A DNA stretch of 64,000 nucleotides. It comes from a virus. The stretch lies in the IMG/VR virus record IMGVR_UViG_3300007511_001396, positions 1 through 64,000 of that record; one strand, written 5' to 3'. Below are positions 2,944-48,832 of this stretch, piece after piece. How positions within the stretch are numbered: the stretch's first letter is position 1; each line of letters opens with the position of its first letter. The notes under the pieces are model-generated. The model made no database searches and was not told where the DNA came from. It was given only the letters and a program-made list of their open reading frames with translations. The translations under genes were made by a program, and so were the position numbers.

Positions 2944-3165
2944 TTGATAACTCCATTACAGTTTATTGATATATACGAGAGAGCATCTTGCGTTATGATA
3001 CATGCTACTCAGTGCTTAGTGTTGCTCCCAGAGGTGTGTGAGTATGCCGTGAGCCTTGAGAAAAAGATAAAAGAGCTAGAGGGCAGGCTTGAAAATCTTG
3101 AGGGACTAGAGGGCAAGCCTGAGCTCATGCAAAAACACAAAGAGAGAAAACTTCCACCTTGCTAA
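2944..3165 (+). CDS. Hypothetical coiled-coil protein
   Basis: GAAGG RBS; LEKKIKELEGRLENLE heptads. Confidence 0.5.
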   Translation: MITPLQFIDIYERASCVMIHATQCLVLLPEVCEYAVSLEKKIKELEGRLENLEGLEGKPELMQKHKERKLPPC

Positions 3166-3187
3166 AAATACTTATCCGTGTTATAAT
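3159..3187 (+). promoter_or_regulatory. sigma70-type promoter TTGCTA-N17-TATAAT with extended -10 TG
   Basis: Boxes at 3159-3164 and 3182-3187. Confidence 0.6.
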
Positions 3188-3230
3188 AGAAGAAGCAGTT
3201 ACAGTAATATACAATAAGGTAAGCGACATA

Positions 3231-3443
3231 ATGAACCCCACACCAAATCTAGTCAAAGGCGACCTAGTTGTAAGACATTACAGACACTATCCTTTCATTA
3301 GGCCATCCAATTTCTTACAACTAGGAATAATAATGAATGAAATGGACGATAACGTTGTTGAAGTGTATTGGTTCCAAGCTAAAACAAACGAAAGAGTAAC
3401 AAAGAAAGAGCTGGATATAGTAAATGGGCATTCAGAAAAATAA
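3231..3443 (+). CDS. Small SH3/KOW-like protein
   Basis: LVKGDLVVR...LGIIM...VEVYW; start moved downstream of the promoter. Confidence 0.6.
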   Translation: MNPTPNLVKGDLVVRHYRHYPFIRPSNFLQLGIIMNEMDDNVVEVYWFQAKTNERVTKKELDIVNGHSEK

Positions 3444-3666
3444 AACTGCGCATATTATAAGAAAGTCTAGCCGAATGCTTAAGAAGGGTGACCTTGTGGC
3501 AAAAGACGCATATGTGTATAGCCCAGATCGTTATGGTATAGTGATAAATGTTGTCGACAAGAAGACGGTAGATGTATATTGGCTTGATAGCAATAGCTAC
3601 CCTTGGTATAGGCAACAGTCGTCTATGCAAACGAGACACCTGAGACTGTTGTCAAGTGTGGACTAA
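3424..3666 (+). CDS. Small SH3/KOW-like protein (start may be 3475)
   Basis: LKKGDLVAK...YGIVINV...VDVYW. Confidence 0.6.
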   Translation: MGIQKNKTAHIIRKSSRMLKKGDLVAKDAYVYSPDRYGIVINVVDKKTVDVYWLDSNSYPWYRQQSSMQTRHLRLLSSVD

Positions 3667-4499
3667 ACCTCTTCACAGATGATAAAGAGTCCACTTTTTG
3701 GCTTGTGTATTTCTTTAATGCGAACTTGGCCTTTCCTGATTACTTCTTGCTCGTCCGGGTAGACCGAAAAAGAAAAAACTGGAGCGCCTGTTTTCGGACG
3801 TCTAATCATCAACAAGCATCTAATTTTTGTTGAGTGTTCATCGGGTCCAACGTAGATAAAACTTCGAGCTTGTTCTTCATCAGCAGTCCATGAAGATAAG
3901 TCGCGACCAAACATCATTCCAACCTTTAACTCGCTTGCAACATCTTGCGGCAACATTATGCCACGATATATGCTTTGGATGTTGTTCGAAGAGCGTATGC
4001 TGCCTTGCGCCATAGCACTAATTAATGTGTTGGCGACTTGATACTCTCCCAAGCTTGTTTCTACGTCTCCAGCTTTATCGGATTCTCTCCCCAAATTCCT
4101 TAACGTATCCGCCAAGTGTCCAGTAGCCTTGGATTTATCTTTATTGAAATTAGACGGATCGCGGACAGATTCGACATTGCCGCCTGTAAATAAGGCAATA
4201 GACGTCTGTATTATCGTCTGAAAGTCGTCGGTGTTTTTTTGTTTTGCTAATGACTCCTCATCTGTTCCCAAATATGACTTATATTCTGCCCAAGTGCTAA
4301 AGAGTCCTTGTGACGCAAGCTGGTTGGCGACAATGCTGACGAAATCTTGTTCCGGTGATTCCTCCATCGAGAGGGAGTCTTGGAAGTTGTCGTCGATTGG
4401 CCTGCCGGATGCGTGTGTTGCCGATAGTATGTCGTCGAGTGTGTCGGTTGCGCTTGATTCTTTTATTAGTTTGCGCCAGTTTTCTATTATTAATTTCAT
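3663..4499 (-). CDS. R-S-E type mono-ADP-ribosyltransferase with MKLIIENWRKLIKE leader
   Basis: IYRG, LSSWT, DEQEV motifs in canonical order; only credible minus-strand gene. Confidence 0.8.
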   Translation of the reverse strand: MKLIIENWRKLIKESSATDTLDDILSATHASGRPIDDNFQDSLSMEESPEQDFVSIVANQLASQGLFSTWAEYKSYLGTDEESLAKQKNTDDFQTIIQTSIALFTGGNVESVRDPSNFNKDKSKATGHLADTLRNLGRESDKAGDVETSLGEYQVANTLISAMAQGSIRSSNNIQSIYRGIMLPQDVASELKVGMMFGRDLSSWTADEEQARSFIYVGPDEHSTKIRCLLMIRRPKTGAPVFSFSVYPDEQEVIRKGQVRIKEIHKPKSGLFIICEEV

Positions 4500-4543
4500 T
4501 TATTAAGCCTTTCATTTTAAATAGTGTGTGAAAGGCTTAATAA
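4500..4543 (-). promoter_or_regulatory. Perfect 15-bp inverted repeat covering the ART RBS, with CTATTTA in the 14-nt loop
   Basis: TTATTAAGCCTTTCA (4500-4514) / TGAAAGGCTTAATAA (4529-4543); TAAATAG at 4518-4524. Confidence 0.85.
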
Positions 4544-4557
4544 CTAGTAGTTAGTGT

Positions 4558-4788
4558 ATGAGAACAGGCACTTTAGTATCCTTAAAAAATATGAATGACT
4601 GGGAGATGTATGGTGGCCGTGAGAATGGCAAATATGGCATCATTCTTGGCGTTGGTGATGTGTGGGATTTCCACACGTCGCAACCGTTAACCGACGAGAC
4701 AGTTGGCTATCGTGTATTATGGCATGATGGACATTGCGATGTGTATTGGGAATATGAATTGCAAATAATCAGTGAAGTAAAGCCTTGA
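4558..4788 (+). CDS. Small SH3/KOW-like protein
   Basis: MRTGTLVSL...YGIILGV...YRVLW...ELQIISE. Confidence 0.65.
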   Translation: MRTGTLVSLKNMNDWEMYGGRENGKYGIILGVGDVWDFHTSQPLTDETVGYRVLWHDGHCDVYWEYELQIISEVKP

Positions 4789-4817
4789 GTCAGCTACTTA
4801 TTGTAGAGGCAATTGTA

Positions 4818-5084
4818 ATGACACGTAATGAAAATTTTAGAGCAATAATACTAGAAGAGCTAACAAAGACTGATAAAACTGAAATTAAGAAAATGATTTC
4901 GACTGAAGTTGAGAAAAATCTAAAGAAAGAGTTGAAAGATGCGCTTGCTGATGAACTAACCAAGGCGTTAAATTCTAAAGCAACAAAGGAAGACATTGCC
5001 GAAATAACCAAAAAAGTTATGAAGAAGCTTTATAAAGATTTATCTTACCATCATCCCTATATTATCGACCGAATAAAGGTCTAA
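4818..5084 (+). CDS. Helical hypothetical protein with FRAIILEEL leader-like motif
   Basis: CTACTTA at 4794 and GAGG RBS support start 4818. Confidence 0.65.
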   Translation: MTRNENFRAIILEELTKTDKTEIKKMISTEVEKNLKKELKDALADELTKALNSKATKEDIAEITKKVMKKLYKDLSYHHPYIIDRIKV

Positions 5085-5144
5085 ACAACTTCTGGTGCTC
5101 TATTTAAGGGCAATCAAAGCTACAAAGCTTAAAGGAATGAAGAA

Positions 5145-5408
5145 ATGAGTATTAAAATTGGTGCCTTATTGGCTTTTTTGGTGGTAGGCTCTTTGGGAAC
5201 GGGCACTGCAGCGGTTAATTTTAAATCTATTGAATCAAAAGATAATTTAAGAACAGTTGAAGACATTCAGGCAGCCACAATGTATCATGAAATGATTCTT
5301 GTTGCTCCGAATACTTGTTCAACAGAAGAGGTTACAATCGAGAAAAAAATTACGTGTTTTGATAATGAACTTGAATGGTTGATTATATCTGAGGAATCTC
5401 CTATCTAA
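5145..5408 (+). CDS. Secreted/membrane hypothetical protein
   Basis: N-terminal signal-like hydrophobic stretch; AAGGA RBS. Confidence 0.55.
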   Translation: MSIKIGALLAFLVVGSLGTGTAAVNFKSIESKDNLRTVEDIQAATMYHEMILVAPNTCSTEEVTIEKKITCFDNELEWLIISEESPI

Positions 5409-5414
5409 TAATGT

Positions 5415-5651
5415 ATGAGGATTATTTCGTTAAAAATAGGACAGTTGATTCAAGATACGGCCACAGGCGAAATAGGACTCCTTATAAGACGTTATAACGT
5501 TATTCCAGAGTGTGACCCCGCAGTCTGGGTGTGGGAAGTGCTGTGGACTGGTGCCCAATCTAGCGACCAGCGTCGCGTCGACATTTATACAGAAGAAGGT
5601 ATAAAAAATATGATATTGTCCGAAGTATTTCAAGAAATTAAAAGTATTTAA
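5415..5651 (+). CDS. Small SH3/KOW-like protein
   Basis: LKIGQLIQD...IGLLIRR...WEVLW; paralog of 5655. Confidence 0.65.
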   Translation: MRIISLKIGQLIQDTATGEIGLLIRRYNVIPECDPAVWVWEVLWTGAQSSDQRRVDIYTEEGIKNMILSEVFQEIKSI

Positions 5652-5654
5652 AAT

Positions 5655-5945
5655 ATGTACGATGAATACTTGCGAAAGAGCTTAAAAGATGTTATATTAA
5701 CTGTAGGCGATCTGATTATTGATATCGGAGGTGGACATATTGGAGTCCTTGTCAGACGAACCCATAGAATAGATATCATTGAAGATGATGTTTACATATG
5801 GGAGATCTTGTGGATCAGAGATATGACTCTACAGTCGATAGATGTGCCCAGAGATAGTCGATTAGAAGAAGATAATTTAAAAACATCAATAATAATGGGA
5901 ATTTATGACTGGTTCCCAGTAACAGGAGAGCAAAATGACATATAG
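5655..5945 (+). CDS. Small SH3/KOW-like protein
   Basis: LTVGDLIID...IGVLVRR...WEILW. Confidence 0.65.
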   Translation: MYDEYLRKSLKDVILTVGDLIIDIGGGHIGVLVRRTHRIDIIEDDVYIWEILWIRDMTLQSIDVPRDSRLEEDNLKTSIIMGIYDWFPVTGEQNDI

Positions 5946-8489: not shown

Positions 8490-9245
8490 ATGAACAGAGT
8501 AACGCTTATAATTTTTGCCATCGCTTGGGCGGCGGCCTTATCTTTCGGGTTGGCAACCGCAGCCGCCGCAGCAGAGCCTATCACAAGTAGTGGCTCTGAG
8601 AGCGTCTCAGCTTCTATGTCCCTGGTTGAAAAAAGAGTAAGGGAGGCTGCAGTGCAAATAGTTTTTGCGACAGGTGGACACGGCTCTGGCTCGCTTATAA
8701 AATATAAAGATTTACATCTTGTGATTACTGCCCAGCACGTTGCAGACGGGAGTTTGGGGAAAGTTTATCATGTTCAAAAGAGAGACGAGATAAAGAGAGG
8801 TGTTTTAGTTTATTCAGATGAGGCTCACGACATTGCAATTTTATTAATAACTCCGTCTAATCGTTTTGTGGGCATTAAACCTATCAAATACAACCCTCTA
8901 AAGGATATTGCTGAGGTGGGTACCAAAATTATTTATTCTGGCTATCCTTCGCACCACAGCACTCTTTCATTTAGAGGAGAGATTGTCGGGAATGAAGTTG
9001 TTAACGGCGCAGGAACAATGTTAATGATAGACGTGTTTGGCTGGTTTGGGTCATCTGGTTCTGTTGTGTACAATACAGATGGACAAATCGTTGGAATATT
9101 GTGGGGAGTAGATGTTGAAAGGCGACGAAATAATCAAGTGAACGAAAATATGGTCTGGGTTTCGCCTATACAAAATCTAGACATTGATTTAGCTATTAAA
9201 GCTTTGTGCAATGGACTAAATAAACCACCAAAAGCTTGTAGATGA
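8490..9245 (+). CDS. Secreted trypsin-like serine protease
   Basis: Signal peptide; TAQH, DIA, GSSG catalytic triad motifs. Confidence 0.85.
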   Translation: MNRVTLIIFAIAWAAALSFGLATAAAAAEPITSSGSESVSASMSLVEKRVREAAVQIVFATGGHGSGSLIKYKDLHLVITAQHVADGSLGKVYHVQKRDEIKRGVLVYSDEAHDIAILLITPSNRFVGIKPIKYNPLKDIAEVGTKIIYSGYPSHHSTLSFRGEIVGNEVVNGAGTMLMIDVFGWFGSSGSVVYNTDGQIVGILWGVDVERRRNNQVNENMVWVSPIQNLDIDLAIKALCNGLNKPPKACR

Positions 9246-9703
9246 TAAATATTAAATGGAAGAAACTCGTCGATAACGAGAAACTAAATACAGTGGCGTC
9301 TGTTATTTGCTCCGATGAAGATAAGATATTAGTTTTATTGAGATCAGAAACTGATAGCTTTGCACCATTACATTGGGATTTACCAGGTGGCCATGTAGAT
9401 GATTCAGATGCATCGATAGAGGCCGGGGCAATTAGAGAATTGGCCGAGGAGGCTGGATTAATAGCCAATTTAGATGATTTAAGATATGTAACCAAGAAGA
9501 GATTTAATAACACAAATAAATATTTCTTTATAATATCTGAATGGGATGGTGCTGTCAGGCTAATAAAAAATCCAAAAACTGGTATCCTTGAACACATTGA
9601 ATATAAATGGCTCACAATTAGTGAAATAAAAGAACTAGAAAAATCAATTATTCCCGCCTATTTATTGAAAAAAGGATTGGAGTTCTTAGATGACAAATTT
9701 TAA
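9242..9703 (+). CDS. Nudix hydrolase
   Basis: Nudix box GGHVDDSDASIEAGAIRELAEEAGL. Confidence 0.9.
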   Translation: MINIKWKKLVDNEKLNTVASVICSDEDKILVLLRSETDSFAPLHWDLPGGHVDDSDASIEAGAIRELAEEAGLIANLDDLRYVTKKRFNNTNKYFFIISEWDGAVRLIKNPKTGILEHIEYKWLTISEIKELEKSIIPAYLLKKGLEFLDDKF

Positions 9704-12401
9704 TAATGTTTGGAAAACTTTTTTAAACGAGAGTGGGTTCCAAAACGGACAATCTATTCAAGAAATCACAGACGACGAAGTAGAGCACATCCGCCCGATT
9801 CTTGACAGAATGGAAGAAGATCCAGACGCTCTCGCTTTTGGGGAATTATTCGATGGCAAAAACCGCCTCGTAATCGACTTTCCAACAACAGACGACACAT
9901 CAGAGATCGGTCGATTTATTGATATGATTGAAAACCAGCACGGCCTAACAGTCGACTACGCCAAGGGAATGGTTTCAGCAGAAAGAAAATTCAAGGCCGC
10001 CGCCCCAGACATTACTGGTGTGTCATATGCTTTAGGTGGAAAAGAGGTGACTAAAAAGTTCCAAATGAAGATTGGTAAGTATTTTGCCAAACTTGAAGAG
10101 CTTTTTTCGCGTTGGGCAGATATAATGCGAGAGGCGGACAAAACTTTGCAAAAGTCAAGTGGCCCAACTGCTCGACCCAAACTGGCTAGAATCTGGATTG
10201 GGCGCGGGGATTTCCCAAAAGCTTTCACTCCCGAAACTCTAAAAAATTATTTTAACACCGTAAACCAACTTGCGCTTTATACAAACATAAATCCCAGTGT
10301 TGTTGGCCATTGGAATCGTGCGGAGAAGTTTTTAGCCCCCACCGCTCGACGGAAATATGTCGCCGACGCTGAAGAACGGCGGCAAACCCAAGATGAAGAG
10401 GACAAGAGGAGGGGAAAAGAGCCTCGGAAGCGCAAACCTGTTGTTGCTCCAAGAACAGTGTTTGGTGTCTGGGCAGAATTCTGGGTTCAGAACGCTGATT
10501 ACATCAAGAAGAACATCGACGACATTAAGAGCGGCAACAAATACTCCATGGTCATCACTCGCCACCCCATCGATGTTCTCCGTATGGCTGACTTCGACCC
10601 TTTTGAATCTTGTCACTCGCCGCCATCACGACAAAACACTGAAAGCTATTATAAATGTGCTGTTGCAGAGGCTCACGGCGAAGGCGCCGTTGCTTATGTT
10701 GTCGAGACTGCTGATCTTCTAGCCACAACCGACTCTGGTACAATAGAAGAGGCCGAGGGCAAAATACAAGAGGGAGAGTTGTTCGCAGACGAGGCCCGGT
10801 ACGGTGTTCACGGACATCATGAGGAATTAGAGCCCGTCTCTCGTTTAAGATTGAGGTTGGCGAATGCTGTGATGGGCGGTGGCGAAGTTTCTGACATCGC
10901 TGTTCCCGAAGCTCGTGTATACGGTGAACCAATTGCTGGCCTCCAAGCTCGCCTATTGAAGTGGGCTCAAGAAAAGCAAGCACACATAGTCGAAAAGCTT
11001 CCGAGAACAAAAGACGGTAAATATGATCTCGGGAAAATACATTTCCGAGGAGGCTCTTATAGCGACTCTGGCGGCGAAGGCGGTCTTGGAGTGCGCTTTC
11101 GCGAGTTGATAGGGGTAGATCGAACTGAAACTATCGGGAACGTAAACAAGGATAATACAACTGAAGAAGAACTCCCTAGTCACGTTGAAGGCCTTATTGG
11201 TCGGTGGACAGAGGAGTGCACGGAGATCGCTGACAAATGGAACGACATGATGAAATACATCGACATGGGTTTCGACGTCGAAGACGACGGCGCTGGCGGT
11301 GTGTATATCCAACCATCTGCTAAAATTAGTATACAGATACCAAGAACAGATTTCTCTCGCCTTCCAAACCACAGCGACGTTAATGATTTAGTTTCCGAAG
11401 CCGGTGAGTATTTTAGAGATGTTGGGTATGGCTATGTGGGAAGTATAACATACTCACATATGCCAAGGAATCACATGATCGTCGGCTGGAACATCGATCC
11501 AGAGGCAGTGCCGGGAATGCCACAGCAGGACATCTATTTCGACCCAGAGATACTCGATGACCTCGGCGCAGAATTAAACAAAATCGATGATTTGGAAAAT
11601 GATTATGAGTTGTTCAGTAAAAAAGTATTGCAGCTGTTTAAACGTGACGGATGGATGTCAGGTGGCACCTTCCAGAACTGGGCCCTCGAACTTTATGATG
11701 ACAACGACCTGTATTATGAGTGGTCTGCGACGATTGATGAGCCTGACGAGCATGACGAGTTCTATGAGATTGAACTAAAGACCACCGACACCATAATCAA
11801 TCTTGCTGACTTCGTTGATAAGGACAAATACACGGTTAAGTGGAAATCCGGCAACCCAACAATAGCTTCTATCAATAACTATCCTGTGGCCTATGTTTAT
11901 AGTACAGGTAGGGGTGAAGAAGTCGAGGTCTCTGAAGCTCAAGAAGGTTTAAACGGGTATTACGATACATTTGCGAAAGCTAAACAAAACATTGAGGCTA
12001 TACTTGGAGAAAACGACTACGCTTATGACAGGATTATAAGTATTCTCAACAGCAGAGATTTTAGCATCGCTCTCAAAAAAGCCATGGGTGAAGGGAACCT
12101 TACTGATGGAATGTGGATGCCGAACTGGAATGTTAGTGCTAAAATGGCAGGCTCCTACGGCGATGAGGGCGACGTTGAAATAGAGATCGCAATGGCATCC
12201 GACGCCGACGACCCTGACGCTGCTGTTGCCTCGATGAAATCTGTGGCAGAAGAGTGGGACGACAACGACGAACTCAATGCAATGATTGCGAAGGTTGCTA
12301 AAGTTGTGCTGACCAAGGAATTGCAAGAGTCGAGGGTCAAAGGCAGAGTGAATGAGAACAAGAAAATAGTAAATACTTGGAAGGAATTTTTAAAATCATG
12401 A
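9690..12401 (+). CDS. 903-aa hypothetical protein, putative internal virion protein
   Basis: WKTFLNE N-terminal and WKEFLKS C-terminal motifs; CTATTTA upstream; ITRHPIDVLRM...SCH core. Confidence 0.75.
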   Translation: MTNFNNVWKTFLNESGFQNGQSIQEITDDEVEHIRPILDRMEEDPDALAFGELFDGKNRLVIDFPTTDDTSEIGRFIDMIENQHGLTVDYAKGMVSAERKFKAAAPDITGVSYALGGKEVTKKFQMKIGKYFAKLEELFSRWADIMREADKTLQKSSGPTARPKLARIWIGRGDFPKAFTPETLKNYFNTVNQLALYTNINPSVVGHWNRAEKFLAPTARRKYVADAEERRQTQDEEDKRRGKEPRKRKPVVAPRTVFGVWAEFWVQNADYIKKNIDDIKSGNKYSMVITRHPIDVLRMADFDPFESCHSPPSRQNTESYYKCAVAEAHGEGAVAYVVETADLLATTDSGTIEEAEGKIQEGELFADEARYGVHGHHEELEPVSRLRLRLANAVMGGGEVSDIAVPEARVYGEPIAGLQARLLKWAQEKQAHIVEKLPRTKDGKYDLGKIHFRGGSYSDSGGEGGLGVRFRELIGVDRTETIGNVNKDNTTEEELPSHVEGLIGRWTEECTEIADKWNDMMKYIDMGFDVEDDGAGGVYIQPSAKISIQIPRTDFSRLPNHSDVNDLVSEAGEYFRDVGYGYVGSITYSHMPRNHMIVGWNIDPEAVPGMPQQDIYFDPEILDDLGAELNKIDDLENDYELFSKKVLQLFKRDGWMSGGTFQNWALELYDDNDLYYEWSATIDEPDEHDEFYEIELKTTDTIINLADFVDKDKYTVKWKSGNPTIASINNYPVAYVYSTGRGEEVEVSEAQEGLNGYYDTFAKAKQNIEAILGENDYAYDRIISILNSRDFSIALKKAMGEGNLTDGMWMPNWNVSAKMAGSYGDEGDVEIEIAMASDADDPDAAVASMKSVAEEWDDNDELNAMIAKVAKVVLTKELQESRVKGRVNENKKIVNTWKEFLKS

Positions 12402-13231
12402 AATTATTAATGGAAAGGTGGCAAAGGTTTGTCATAAATGAAAAAGCCTGGATGGGGAAAGCCTTCCAAACGTTTAAGCGAAGGGTTGCTAAAGGTGAGC
12501 ATCCCCTAGCAGCAGCAAGGCGCACTTTAATAGGTGGCATAGATGAGAAAACAGGACAAGAATTAGAAGGCTCTACAAGGGTCGTATTTCAAATACCAAA
12601 AAACACAGATATGGTTGTCAAAGTCATCGCCGTTGATCTTTTAAAAAGGACAGGACAAGAATGGCTGCCACCAGACGAACCAGATTATGATAGAGGGAAT
12701 TTTAACAGACACCAAAAGATAATGTCAAATAAAAATGAAGCGTCTGTCAAACTTCAGATGAAATACCAAGATATATTTCCGAAAATATGGGAAGCGGCTG
12801 AGGATTACTCCTGGATACTAGTTGAGCGAGTAGAATTATTTGCTACACACAAAGAGATGATGGAGTTTCTTGGACTAGGAGAATTTTCTTTGAGTCGTCA
12901 AGAGTGGTTAGTTATTATGGAGGAAGTATTCAAACAATTACAGGGGCGAAGTAGGGCTGCGATCAATGCCAGAAATGACGTTTCAGAGAATGCCGATTTG
13001 GATGCCACAGTGGCAGATAACGGAAGCGAGAGGGAAGCTTTTATCACCAGAGATGAGCAAATGAAAGTTGTTGAACAATTAATAAATAATCATCACTTAC
13101 GTAGCATTTTTACTATCTTGGCAAAGACAAAGTTTCAGCCTAGAGAGTTTAGATATCAAAATGTCGGATATTCTAAAATAACTAACAAACTTATTTTATT
13201 AGATACTGGTGTATGGGACGAGAAACTATAA
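12398..13231 (+). CDS. Protein kinase-like fold protein with MKLLMERWQRFVINE leader
   Basis: GSTRVVF, VVK, NKNE, FPKI...ILVERV, REFRYQNVG, LLDTG. Confidence 0.6.
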   Translation: MKLLMERWQRFVINEKAWMGKAFQTFKRRVAKGEHPLAAARRTLIGGIDEKTGQELEGSTRVVFQIPKNTDMVVKVIAVDLLKRTGQEWLPPDEPDYDRGNFNRHQKIMSNKNEASVKLQMKYQDIFPKIWEAAEDYSWILVERVELFATHKEMMEFLGLGEFSLSRQEWLVIMEEVFKQLQGRSRAAINARNDVSENADLDATVADNGSEREAFITRDEQMKVVEQLINNHHLRSIFTILAKTKFQPREFRYQNVGYSKITNKLILLDTGVWDEKL

Positions 13232-13603
13232 ATGAAAGCTATTGTTTTCAAAAACAGTAAAATACCACAGCTGTTAAGTATTGTTATACCTGTGGGGGCT
13301 ATTACTTTATTTCCTTTTATTTTTATTAGGGGTGATGGAGATGAGCGTGTGATAAATCATGAAAGCATTCATATCGCTCAATATGCTGAACTCTGGGTAA
13401 TTGGGTTTTTATTTTTATATGCTCTCGACTATTTGCGGGGCTACATAAAATACTGGCACATTCGTAGTGACATTTCACCAGCAGCACATAAATTTGCGGC
13501 TTATAAAAACATTCGTTTTGAACAAGAGGCATATTCTTATGAGTATGATATGAACTATTTAGAGAATAGGGTGCCATATGCTTGGCGAAAATATAAGATT
13601 TAA
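13232..13603 (+). CDS. Membrane-associated HExxH metallopeptidase-like protein
   Basis: INHESIHIAQ and FEQEAY motifs; hydrophobic segments. Confidence 0.7.
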   Translation: MKAIVFKNSKIPQLLSIVIPVGAITLFPFIFIRGDGDERVINHESIHIAQYAELWVIGFLFLYALDYLRGYIKYWHIRSDISPAAHKFAAYKNIRFEQEAYSYEYDMNYLENRVPYAWRKYKI

Positions 13604-13606
13604 ACA

Positions 13607-13978
13607 ATGAAATTAATTTTTGAAAATTGGCGAAAGTTTGTATCCGAGGAAGAGGACACACAGCCCTCCGAGTATATTGATTTTAAAAGAGGTGACTGCT
13701 CTCTCTTGGCTAATGTAGTGGCAGATATGTTAGAACTGCCGACTTACGGCATTTTTGATAAAGCAGGCAACATACAGCATGTTTTTGTCTATGATCCTGA
13801 TACCGATGAAGCTATAGATTGTCGCGGAAGAATGCCAGTTAGAGATATAACCCAAAACATTCGTGGAGACGATTTAACTTATAGAAAAATAACACAACAA
13901 GAAATTAAAGATACATTTGGCACATATAGTGATGAAGAATACGAATATGCTGAAGAAGAGGCACACTCAATCATATGA
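13607..13978 (+). CDS. Small papain/transglutaminase-like (Cys-His-Asp) protein with MKLIFENWRKFVSEE leader
   Basis: GDCSLLA...QHVFV...IDCRG. Confidence 0.55.
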   Translation: MKLIFENWRKFVSEEEDTQPSEYIDFKRGDCSLLANVVADMLELPTYGIFDKAGNIQHVFVYDPDTDEAIDCRGRMPVRDITQNIRGDDLTYRKITQQEIKDTFGTYSDEEYEYAEEEAHSII

Positions 13979-14658
13979 AACTCCTACTTGAACAATGGCG
14001 ACAGTTCGTTAATGAAGAATATGAGCCGATTACAACTCTGCGAGTTTTTGATTTTGACGAAACAATAGCTCACACTCGTTCCGTAACACGTGTTACAGCC
14101 CCAGATGGTTCAACATTTTCCTTATCTGATCAGAAAGAATTTGACAGCTTTATGTCTTCTATGGCCGAAAAAGAGGGCATTAAAACATTTGATCCAGTTA
14201 GTGAGTTGATAAAGCTAGGATATAAAATGGATTTTTCTGATTTTGGAATTGTCAAAGAACCAACAGAAATAACAATTGTTACGGATGTGTTACGCACCTT
14301 CCCAACTAACTCTAAAACATATGTTATGACAGCAAGACGAGGCAACTCAATTGGGCCAATATTAGACTATTTAGAAGATATTGGTATAGACTCGTCAAAA
14401 GTTAGACCTATTGCAACCCAAGGTCAGTCAAAGGGGGCAACAATAGCACAAATGATAAGTAATAAAATAATGTCTACAGGTAAATCTAATATTACGCGAG
14501 TAGAATATTATGAAGATTCAGATAAAAACATTCAAGATGTTTTAGATCATATTTGTCGAGGAAATATTGATGCCATAAAAACAAAAGATTTTGAACTAGT
14601 CATATATAAAGTTATTTCTAATGGCGATGGATACACTTTTGAAAAGATTGGTTGCTAA
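13975..14658 (+). CDS. HAD-superfamily phosphatase with MKLLLEQWRQFVNEE leader
   Basis: FDFDET motif I, MTAR motif II, K, YEDS motif IV. Confidence 0.8.
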   Translation: MKLLLEQWRQFVNEEYEPITTLRVFDFDETIAHTRSVTRVTAPDGSTFSLSDQKEFDSFMSSMAEKEGIKTFDPVSELIKLGYKMDFSDFGIVKEPTEITIVTDVLRTFPTNSKTYVMTARRGNSIGPILDYLEDIGIDSSKVRPIATQGQSKGATIAQMISNKIMSTGKSNITRVEYYEDSDKNIQDVLDHICRGNIDAIKTKDFELVIYKVISNGDGYTFEKIGC

Positions 14659-20751: not shown

Positions 20752-21115
20752 GGGGGCGCAATGGTTTCGACTAGGTAAGAGAAACGAATAGTGCAAGTAG
20801 TCTAACGAATAACAGACTTAAAATGTAGTTCAAAAAAATAATTGCTAATAACAATAATTTCTACAACGACGCTGCCTTAGCAGCATAGTAGGGAGGTGCT
20901 TAGAGCCTTCTATCCAATCTAAGCTAAATGCCTGATTCACATTGACGTTATAACGAATCAAAATGGTTACCCTACTTGTAGTAGGTGGACCCAGAGACGA
21001 CATAAGGGTGGTTGAATACTGTCGTAACCTTTGCTGGGATTAGAAACCAGATAAACTTGTGAATGACTTGAAATGGAAATTATTTAGGACAGCGGTTCGA
21101 CTCCGCTCGCTTCCA
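20752..21115 (+). ncRNA. ssrA: tmRNA
   Basis: 5' GGGGGCGCAATGGTTTCGAC; 3' GGACAGCGGTTCGACTCCGCTCGCTTCCA; acceptor stem with G3:U; tag ORF 20844-20888 ANNNNFYNDAALAA*. Confidence 0.95.
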
Positions 21116-21172
21116 ACTCCACCAAAAAACCCGCCGTTTCCATTACTTTAAACTATTTATTATAAAGGAGTA

Positions 21173-21733
21173 ATGGAAATGGCCAAGGTTTTTATAAAGT
21201 GCGAAGTATGTGATTTAGAATTTGAAAGAAAAAGGGGTGAGGTAAACAGAAGTAAGAGATTAGGTAGACCTCAATATTGCTCAAGGAGGTGTTCCGCAAA
21301 GGCGAACGAAGGATCTTTAGGAGAGCATTTAGGCTCGGGCAGACCAGAAAACCTAATAAAAGGAAACCGGAGAGACAAATACTCGGAGTTTAAATGGTTT
21401 ATGAGGTGTATAAGACGAAGAAACAAAGAATACAACGTTGATTTAGAATTCCTAAAAAACTTATGGGAAGAACAATCAGGTATCTGTCCACTAACAGGTT
21501 GGAGCCTAATGTTGCCTAAACACTCAAGCAAATGGAAAACAAAACAAGAAAAACAGTATCGGGCTAGTATCGATAGAATCGACAATTCGAAAGGATATAC
21601 CAAAGGGAATATAAGGTTTATTTCAGTCATGGCGAATTATTGTAAGAACGACTTTACAGATGAAGAGGTTAAACTGTTTTGTGAAGCTGTCGTTAAAAAC
21701 GCCTCCACCTCGTCACCACCTCGTCACCACTAA
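21173..21733 (+). CDS. Free-standing HNH-type homing endonuclease with Zn-finger N-terminus
   Basis: CEVC...YCSRRC; GICPLTG, SIDRIDNSKGYTKGNIRFI...N. Confidence 0.8.
   Translation: MEMAKVFIKCEVCDLEFERKRGEVNRSKRLGRPQYCSRRCSAKANEGSLGEHLGSGRPENLIKGNRRDKYSEFKWFMRCIRRRNKEYNVDLEFLKNLWEEQSGICPLTGWSLMLPKHSSKWKTKQEKQYRASIDRIDNSKGYTKGNIRFISVMANYCKNDFTDEEVKLFCEAVVKNASTSSPPRHH
21708..21730 (+). repeat. 11-bp tandem repeat CCTCGTCACCA x2
   Basis: Visible right after CGCCTCCA at 21700. Confidence 0.8.
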
Positions 21734-47837: not shown

Positions 47838-48159
47838 AATTATATTAACTGCATCCATTACGCTATCAATATTATTAAATATTGGCTTGATGGTCTATGC
47901 CCGTAACGTAGTGACTACTCTATTATCAGTATCGGCTGAGTTTAGCGATTTAAAAAACATGACAGATAGTTTTGCTGAACATATAAAATCAGTCTATGAA
48001 TTAGAAATGTTCTATGGAGATCAGACATTATCTGCCTTAATGGCACATGCCACATCGTTTAATAATTATCTTGATACATTTGAATATATCTATGAACTAT
48101 CTGAAGACCTAAAGGACACAGAATTTGACAATAATCAGGCAGAAGAGACGACGAAGTAA
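47824..48159 (+). CDS. N-terminally membrane-anchored hypothetical protein
   Basis: TM helix residues 5-24. Confidence 0.6.
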   Translation: MSRLEIILTASITLSILLNIGLMVYARNVVTTLLSVSAEFSDLKNMTDSFAEHIKSVYELEMFYGDQTLSALMAHATSFNNYLDTFEYIYELSEDLKDTEFDNNQAEETTK

Positions 48160-48832
48160 GTCTAAAAAAAATTATTACTTCACTAAAGTACATGAAGACG
48201 CCATCATAAAATATGTTGCATCTGATTCATATAGAGAAAAGAATGAACTTTATATGGCTTTTATTCGACCTGCTTTTAGTGAAATGGTAGACAAGATTGT
48301 ATTTGCTTATAAGTTTACTACATTATCTAACATTGATTGTTTGCGAGAAGAGTGTAAGACTTGGCTTATAACAATATTAGACAAATATGATCCAGGAAAA
48401 GGTTCCAAAGCTTTTTCATACTTTAGTGTGGTAACAAAAAATTGGTTTATTCATAAGGTAAAGAAGCAACAAAAGAGATTGTCTAGGGAAATAGATTTCG
48501 ATAATGTCTCTAAATCGCATGAACAAGAATTTCTTTCGACCACTGAGTCATATATTTCAAATCGTGAAGAAGCTGAGTTTTGGATATCATTCCACAAAGA
48601 GCTTTCCTCGTGGGATGTATCTCAAATGAGAGAGACTGATTTGAAAGTTTATAAAGCCATTATAATACTCTTTGAATCCAAAGATGATATAGAAATTTTC
48701 AACAAGAAAGCGATCTATCTCTATTTAAGAGAGATAACCGGTCTCAATACTAAACAGGTTGTCAACTCATTGAAGAAATTCAAAAAGAAGTATTTTGCCT
48801 TTAAAAAAGACTGGGAGGGAGGTTTTGTATGA
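48125..48832 (+). CDS. Phage sigma factor, T4 gp55-like (late transcription)
   Basis: Region-2-like KYDPGKGSKAFSYFSVVTKNWF; located just before the structural module. Confidence 0.7.
   Translation: MTIIRQKRRRSKSKKNYYFTKVHEDAIIKYVASDSYREKNELYMAFIRPAFSEMVDKIVFAYKFTTLSNIDCLREECKTWLITILDKYDPGKGSKAFSYFSVVTKNWFIHKVKKQQKRLSREIDFDNVSKSHEQEFLSTTESYISNREEAEFWISFHKELSSWDVSQMRETDLKVYKAIIILFESKDDIEIFNKKAIYLYLREITGLNTKQVVNSLKKFKKKYFAFKKDWEGGFV

Follow-up and report, generated by a model that had tools for sequence, protein, structure and literature searches.

The question raised by this locus is how a phage keeps a potentially harmful enzyme from being made from the wrong transcript. An uncultured phage known from marine metagenomes carries, on the strand opposite to its other genes, a gene for an ADP-ribosyltransferase (ART) whose start codon is preceded by a perfect inverted repeat, and the loop of this repeat holds the heptamer CTATTTA, a putative promoter. 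In bacteriophage T4, genes e, soc, 49 and I-TevI possess an inhibitory RNA helix with a late promoter inside or beside its 5' strand (PMC3014915). An earlier note on this DNA had proposed that the ART gene is locked by the same logic. Here we describe a computational analysis of the gene, its hairpin and its promoter-like motif, and weigh a translational lock against other roles that the repeat might play in RNA or DNA.

The DNA analysed, referred to below as the window, makes up the initial 64 kb of an IMG/VR viral contig of 74,320 bp, whose completeness is estimated at 41%. It encodes PhoH, an endolysin, a gp6-like baseplate wedge protein and giant structural ORFs, and the gp6-like protein is about 30% identical to its counterparts in Microcystis phage Mel-JY01 and the Flavobacterium 'immuto' phages. 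The phage that hosts the ART gene is a marine myovirus, only distantly T4-like. Relatives of the locus itself were found neither by megablast with positions 3000-5500 nor by a scan of IMG/VR. The features discussed below are collected in Table 1.

Table 1. Positions of the ART gene, the two hairpins and associated features in the window and in related loci
Feature	Position or locus	Strand	Remarks
ADP-ribosyltransferase gene, 278 aa	3663..4499	(-)	stop codon 3665-3663
Catalytic ART domain, about residues 96-278	3666..4214	(-)
Catalytic codons	R179 3965-3963; S203 3893-3891; E250 3752-3750; E252 3746-3744	(-)
N-terminal leader MKLIIENWRKLIKES, codons 1-15	4455..4499	(-)	also on unrelated proteins
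Hairpin 3' arm TGAAAGGCTTAATAA	4500..4514	(-)	contains SD-like AAAGG 4512-4508; abuts ATG
14-nt loop CACACTATTTAAAA	4515..4528	(-)	holds CTATTTA 4524-4518
Hairpin 5' arm TTATTAAGCCTTTCA	4529..4543	(-)	upstream of promoter motif
Second hairpin	21133..21183	(+)	arms 21133-21149 and 21167-21183
Small proteins with GD(L/I)V...W	window 3424-3666 and 4558-4788; L008:2303-2560; L014:12-278	(+) in window
ACTATTTATAACTG directly before SD-less ATG	L002, L003, L005, L006, L008, L011, L013, L014, L015, L027
Fused ART-domain relatives	proteins P0060, P0063, P0084, P0086, P0121

A divergent ADP-ribosyltransferase on the opposite strand

All 47 ORFs of at least 150 aa in the window lie on the plus strand except the ART ORF and one shadow ORF within a 903-aa gene, which bears out the claim that the ART gene is the only credible minus-strand gene. 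It is convergent with a plus-strand gene (3424-3666), with an overlap of 4 nt, and its ATG at 4499 is backed by homologues that begin with the same MKL(L/I)(L/I)ENW. The GC3 of the gene (0.44) is above that of most genes and similar to that of its neighbours; owing to this resemblance, a foreign origin is not clear from composition.

Two further features of the surroundings were observed. Small proteins of 76-88 aa with a common GD(L/I)V...W motif flank the ART gene in the window and in relatives alike, and these are without PHROG or Pfam match. The product of a plus-strand ORF at 8490-9245 is a trypsin-like serine protease (PF13365, E 1.6e-14) whose N-terminus resembles a signal peptide; the ORF adjoins a Nudix gene (9242-9703) and the gene of a leader-tagged 903-aa protein.

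The ART protein is invisible to single-sequence searches: Pfam, PHROGs and phmmer against the PDB returned no match, Pfam none even at E up to 1, and tblastn against 50,697 phage records was likewise without a match. Its motifs occur in the order Y178-R179-G180, S202-S203-W204-T205 and E250-Q-E252, and in 33 metagenomic homologues, which are 35-40% identical to it, Y-R-G, S-S-W-T and E-x-E are invariant. A profile search of 1.8 billion representatives yielded 203 ART relatives (about 200 at 50% clustering), many of which have the ART domain at the C-terminus of longer proteins, and across 74 diverse relatives R179, G180, S203, E250 and E252 are at least 90% conserved. The 74-sequence profile matches Vis, an NAD+-arginine ART, with an E value of 5.6e-13 and with YRG, S-x-T/STS and ExE aligned; Tre1, Certhrax, HopU1, ART2.2, SpvB and C3 follow. 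Curated models match some relatives weakly (PF03496, 8 of 74; PF01129, 5 of 74).

Structure prediction agrees with the profile. An AlphaFold2 model of residues 90-278 reached a pLDDT of 93.4, for which the 74-sequence domain alignment was needed, the 17 close homologues having given a pLDDT of 40. The top structural matches in VIA-align are Vis (Z 12.2), HopU1 (11.8), ExoS (11.2), Tre1 (10.9) and C3 (10.7), and the best 50 PDB rows are ARTs throughout (Z 9-12.2). Foldseek assigned a probability of 1.00 with ARTs alone on top, and the best matches in BFVD are phage ARTs, including Alt, ModB and fusions to portal, minor-capsid or MuF proteins. The ART fold is present in the predicted structure, and the R-S-ExE assignment made earlier is upheld by fold, profile and conserved catalytic residues. 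Judged by the modelled fold and these residues, the window protein is a real but very divergent R-S-ExE ADP-ribosyltransferase, an assignment we regard as secure. The ExE motif in ARTs predicts arginine specificity, and by this family rule the enzyme is predicted to be an arginine-type mono-ADP-ribosyltransferase.

The Vibrio splendidus toxin Vis (PDB 4xzj) is the best match of the phage protein by profile and by structure alike. Identity to Vis and to C3, ExoS, Tre1 and HopU1 is nevertheless about 18%, and the phage protein differs from this group in its 95-residue N-terminal helical/leader region, in its phage context and in having no secretion or immunity partner nearby in the window. With T4 Alt, ModA and ModB it has the R-S-ExE ART fold in common but no sequence similarity detectable by PHROG, Pfam or tblastn, and it is 278 aa long as against about 680 for Alt. 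A third comparison is with MuF-fused phage ART toxins. Distant profile relatives carry Phage_Mu_F, and the structural matches to portal and minor-capsid fusions, together with this domain, link the ART domain to capsid delivery; the window ART, unlike these proteins, is free-standing, with a short leader and no fusion to a head protein. Some distant relatives are fused to Phage_Mu_F, Nudix plus 2H-phosphoesterase, kinase, Sigma70_r2 or DnaJ domains.

Two hairpins with a promoter-like motif in the loop

The raw count of CTATTTA in the window is not enriched (20 copies versus 17 expected). Between -60 and -5 of plus-strand gene starts, however, no heptamer is more enriched, and 11 of the 19 plus-strand copies lie there (binomial p 2e-9). 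Nineteen copies lie on the plus strand and two on the minus strand, and one of the latter is 18 nt ahead of the ART gene. The spacing to the start codon is 13-45 nt, usually with a Shine-Dalgarno (SD) sequence between; upstream of the motif there is no -35-like conservation, and the two bases that follow it are not conserved in the window genome. About a dozen genes of the phage are preceded by the motif, including those for the gp6-like baseplate protein, an endonuclease VII/HNH protein, PhoH and leader-tagged enzymes. In 26 related loci (69.8 kb) CTATTTA occurs 56 times on the gene strand and 5 times on the opposite strand, and ACTATTTATAACTG-ATG is found at 10 of 14 ART homologues, whose upstream contexts are of three unrelated kinds. 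These properties, and the fact that the motif flips with the ART gene, support the earlier reading of CTATTTA as a promoter. As a promoter-like signal it is well supported statistically, and it appears to resemble the T4 late promoters in type, that is, a single AT-rich element without a -35 element.

No mention of CTATTTA as a phage promoter was found in the papers searched. A T4 consensus on the reverse strand (CTATTTATA in the homologues reads TATAAATAG on the other strand) was rejected as the true signal, since the bases after CTATTTA are unconserved and the genes are all downstream when the motif is read as CTATTTA. The gp6-like baseplate, endonuclease VII-like and leader-tagged genes behind the motif suggest that its timing may be late, along with a sigma-like ORF at 48125-48832 whose signals are weak (Sigma70_r2, E 0.096). 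By analogy with T4, the ART transcript would be expected to start at about 4512-4510, some 6 nt past the motif.

At the ART gene the minus-strand order is TTATTAAGCCTTTCA-CACACTATTTAAAA-TGAAAGGCTTAATAA-ATG, and all 15 positions of the arms form Watson-Crick pairs. The perfect 15-bp inverted repeat reported earlier is thereby confirmed, as are the AAAGG ribosome-binding site buried in its 3' arm and the CTATTTA in its loop, in the orientation of the gene; the repeat was said to end 1 nt before the ATG, whereas the 3' arm in fact touches it, a trivial discrepancy. Folded as RNA, the hairpin has a free energy of -23.7 kcal/mol (z = -5.7), and none of 200 shuffled sequences folded as well. In a scan of the 64 kb it was the only perfect looped inverted repeat of at least 15 nt, and the best enclosing stem at 3000 random positions scored at most 12, as against 15 at the ART site. 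The hairpin is real and far beyond chance. The predicted probability of being unpaired over -15 to +5 is 0.25 at the ART start and about 0.7 in homologues, and a predicted transcript of the late type has a dG of 0.0, compared with -17.1 for the long form. Among DNA contigs of the natural population, no variants were found in or near the hairpin. An intrinsic terminator is ruled out by the lack of a U-run after either arm, and an inversion or insertion scar by the absence of flanking repeats.

A survey in which every motif site was folded from -45 to +12 revealed a second hairpin of this kind, which is new in this analysis and absent from the earlier note. Its stem has 17 bp, three of them G-U, and its 17-nt loop holds CTATTTA at 21153-21159. 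An HNH/endonuclease VII-like gene (21173-21733) has its GGAG and both its ATGs buried in the 3' arm. Across the 78 motif sites scored (21 in the window and 57 in relatives), the ART site scored 15, the HNH site 15.5 and the next 8, so that both hairpins exceed the maximum found at random positions. The second hairpin folds at -30.8 kcal/mol, with a z of -6.4 in the sense strand and -4.1 in the antisense strand; its three G-U pairs become A-C mismatches in antisense RNA, and these pairs and the weaker antisense z indicate that the sense RNA is favoured. Here too the RNA expected from a start about 6 nt past the motif is without structure (dG 0.0). The two hairpins have arms of unrelated sequence, which points to a convergent design and not to a repeated element. 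A tmRNA gene (20752-21115) ends 18 nt upstream of the hairpin, which makes read-through into the nuclease gene plausible. By analogy, the hairpin at the HNH gene is best read as an I-TevI-like lock on a mobile nuclease.

CTATTTA could also be regarded as an RNA-level signal, for example a nuclease processing site or the site of a translational regulator, and not as a promoter; the hairpins would in that case display it in a loop. In ART homologues only 6 nt separate the end of the motif from the ATG, a very tight fit for a promoter unless the mRNA has no leader. The spacing of 13-45 nt elsewhere, however, is what promoters usually show and ribosome-site operators do not, and only 2 of the 21 window copies lie in hairpin loops. 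The lone AT-rich element is like that of gp55-type promoters, and a sigma-like ORF, if of weak signal, is present. We therefore give an RNA-level signal very little credence and continue with the motif as a promoter.

A probable translational lock and its alternatives

We consider a T4-like translational lock at the ART gene likely, with a probability of roughly 55%, and the best explanation of the hairpin, mainly because the phage repeats the design on its nuclease gene. The CTATTTA in the hairpin loop would serve the ART gene as a compact promoter of its own. Were transcription to begin some 6 nt beyond the motif, the RNA would start within the 3' arm and lack the 5' arm, and it is predicted to be free of structure and open to translation. 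A longer minus-strand RNA entering from upstream would fold the hairpin and hide the ribosome site. One promoter class would in this manner control the translation of two potentially harmful enzymes, the ART and the HNH nuclease, and it is the identical design on the HNH/endonuclease VII-like gene that makes the arrangement look like a deliberate lock. The reverse orientation of the ART gene may add a second protective layer, since plus-strand transcription across it would yield antisense RNA. In this scheme the transcript start, its timing, the block to translation, and the packaging and target of the enzyme are what we infer.

The likeness to the T4 locks extends to several features. In T4, and by prediction in the window, the SD and AUG are sequestered by a helix, a compact AT-rich promoter that has no -35 element follows the 5' strand of this helix, and transcripts from this inner promoter lack the strand. 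The locked genes are potentially harmful, a nuclease in both phages and an ART as well in the window, and the HNH/endonuclease VII-like gene directly parallels T4 I-TevI and gene 49. The window differs in its promoter word, which is CTATTTA and not TATAAATA, in that the ART gene stands alone on the opposite strand with no evident co-directional early transcription upstream, and in being known from sequence alone. Of the T4-style logic put forward earlier, the anatomy thus matches that of e, soc, 49 and I-TevI (PMC3014915), whereas an upstream co-directional gene and a conserved hairpin were not found.

Within the window no co-directional genes and no other minus-strand CTATTTA lie upstream of the ART gene, and the number of sigma70-like matches on the minus strand (20) is what chance would give (15 +/- 3.5 expected). 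For the ART gene, then, the target RNA of the lock is hypothetical, unlike for the HNH gene at 21173, which has an upstream co-directional transcription feature in the tmRNA gene. Hypothetically, the silenced RNA could arise by spurious antisense transcription, or the lock could be a relic.

Because all 15 pairs are Watson-Crick, the plus-strand RNA of the ART hairpin folds as well (-35.8 kcal/mol with flanks, z -6.2), and extra helices containing G-U pairs reach the start codon of the plus-strand gene at 4558-4788. The hairpin might accordingly act in plus-strand RNA as a processing, stabilising or translation-tuning element for that gene, with its overlap of the ART start incidental. The stem-loop stands 14 nt ahead of this gene's ATG, and plus-strand transcripts of the neighbours cross the ART gene antisense. 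Gene 4558 has neither an SD nor a CTATTTA of its own, and for want of the latter must be read from long transcripts. The boundaries of the arms, however, fit the ART start exactly, with the SD inside and the end at the AUG, but stop 14 nt short of the 4558 AUG; the loop motif has the ART orientation; and the additional plus-strand helices are short and AU/GU-rich. The HNH gene, too, has its motif in the loop and its SD in the 3' arm on the sense strand, and the G-U pairs of its stem are specific to the sense RNA. A plus-strand role is on this evidence unlikely.

A perfectly Watson-Crick repeat is also strand-neutral, as would befit a palindrome acting as DNA, whether as the operator of a dimeric regulator, a cruciform that modulates the promoter, or a recombination or cassette-boundary element. 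The ART gene and its motif occur in at least three unrelated upstream contexts and are inverted in the window only, so that the gene behaves like a mobile cassette, and the other hairpin-bearing gene encodes a mobile HNH nuclease. Promoter-stem-loop cassettes occur in T4-type phages. Nonetheless, the two hairpins differ in arm sequence and so have neither a protein site nor a repeat family in common; the arms are confined to one end of the gene, with no matching repeats flanking the cassette; and arms of 15-17 bp with loops of 14-17 nt are unusual for operators. The HNH stem, moreover, needs G-U pairs, which exist only in RNA. We find a DNA-level role decidedly improbable and retain the translational lock as the preferred reading.

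Homologous loci, the leader and possible capsid delivery

The genomic contexts of ART homologues were taken from the metagenome scan. The ART gene points the same way as its neighbours in these relatives and is inverted only in the window. In motif-bearing homologues 6 nt lie between the end of CTATTTA and an ATG that has no SD, an arrangement implying that the mRNA is leaderless or nearly so (apparent 5-nt spacings between motif and start at other genes of the relatives stem from GTG ORF calls and were left out). Loci L007, L010/L012 and L016 have overlapping-stop coupling, TTG starts or a normal SD instead. The 10 homologous motif-bearing loci have no hairpin, and such a structure encloses not one of the 57 motif sites of related loci that were scored. 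The region upstream of the window ART has 12 extra nt, which create the SD and the 3' arm. The lock mechanism is already known from T4; the evolutionary twist would be that the gene is leaderless in relatives and has a hairpin and an SD here.

A broader but doubtful proposal is that promoter choice decides the translation of the ART by two separately evolved ways, and that the ART belongs to a leader-tagged, co-promoted and injected set of proteins. In the relatives, the CTATTTA placed 6 nt before the ATG would make only the promoter's own leaderless transcript translatable. The window phage would have gained a 12-nt leader with an SD together with a complementary upstream arm, and flipped the gene.

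Other features of the related loci were noted. In L011 a tRNA-Lys(UUU) gene (5853-5926, minus strand) lies on the opposite strand directly downstream of the ART homologue. About 1 kb without ORFs precedes the ART homologue in L008 (2560-3590), L006 (730-1300) and L014 (1220-2050), and its last 110 nt are nearly identical across loci. Without Rfam, tRNA or tmRNA match, this stretch may be a new RNA or regulatory region.

The first residues of the ART recur elsewhere in the window. Near-identical leaders of 15 residues are found on proteins at 12398-12442, 13607-13651 and 13975-14019 (plus strand), and the pattern MKL(I/L)(I/L/F/M)E.W(R/Q).(F/L)(V/I)..E is common to the ART and these three unrelated proteins. 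The leader-bearing genes sit in units headed by CTATTTA: the copy at 9658 heads 9690/12398, and that at 13555 heads 13607/13975. The leaders contain (I/L/V)-x-E sites and end in (I/V)-x-E, like the sites of the T4 prohead protease, and the concept of a capsid-targeting sequence has been described for T4 (PMC3012670). The prohead protease model PF03420 has no match in this 41%-complete fragment, and control genomes were unmatched as well, which makes this negative uninformative; the head module and any protease lie outside the fragment. From its pattern, the leader is a candidate capsid-targeting or protease-cleaved sequence. The ART would parallel T4 Alt in its putative late-type promoter and in a possible N-terminal targeting leader with (I/L)xE sites. 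That the leader is common to unrelated enzymes suggests, as a reasonable reading by analogy with Alt, that the ART may be loaded into the capsid and injected.

The ART family described here has been overlooked by curated models, and its relatives include fusions to MuF, Nudix/2H-phosphoesterase, kinase or sigma domains; in abundant ocean viruses it may serve host takeover as an injected effector. The two hairpins provide an internal handle, from sequence only, on the promoter of this phage and on its transcript starts. If the translational lock is true, the T4 promoter-in-hairpin design extends to distant uncultured marine phages with a different promoter word, and this would suggest a general phage solution to the problem of silencing nucleases and toxins on the wrong transcripts.
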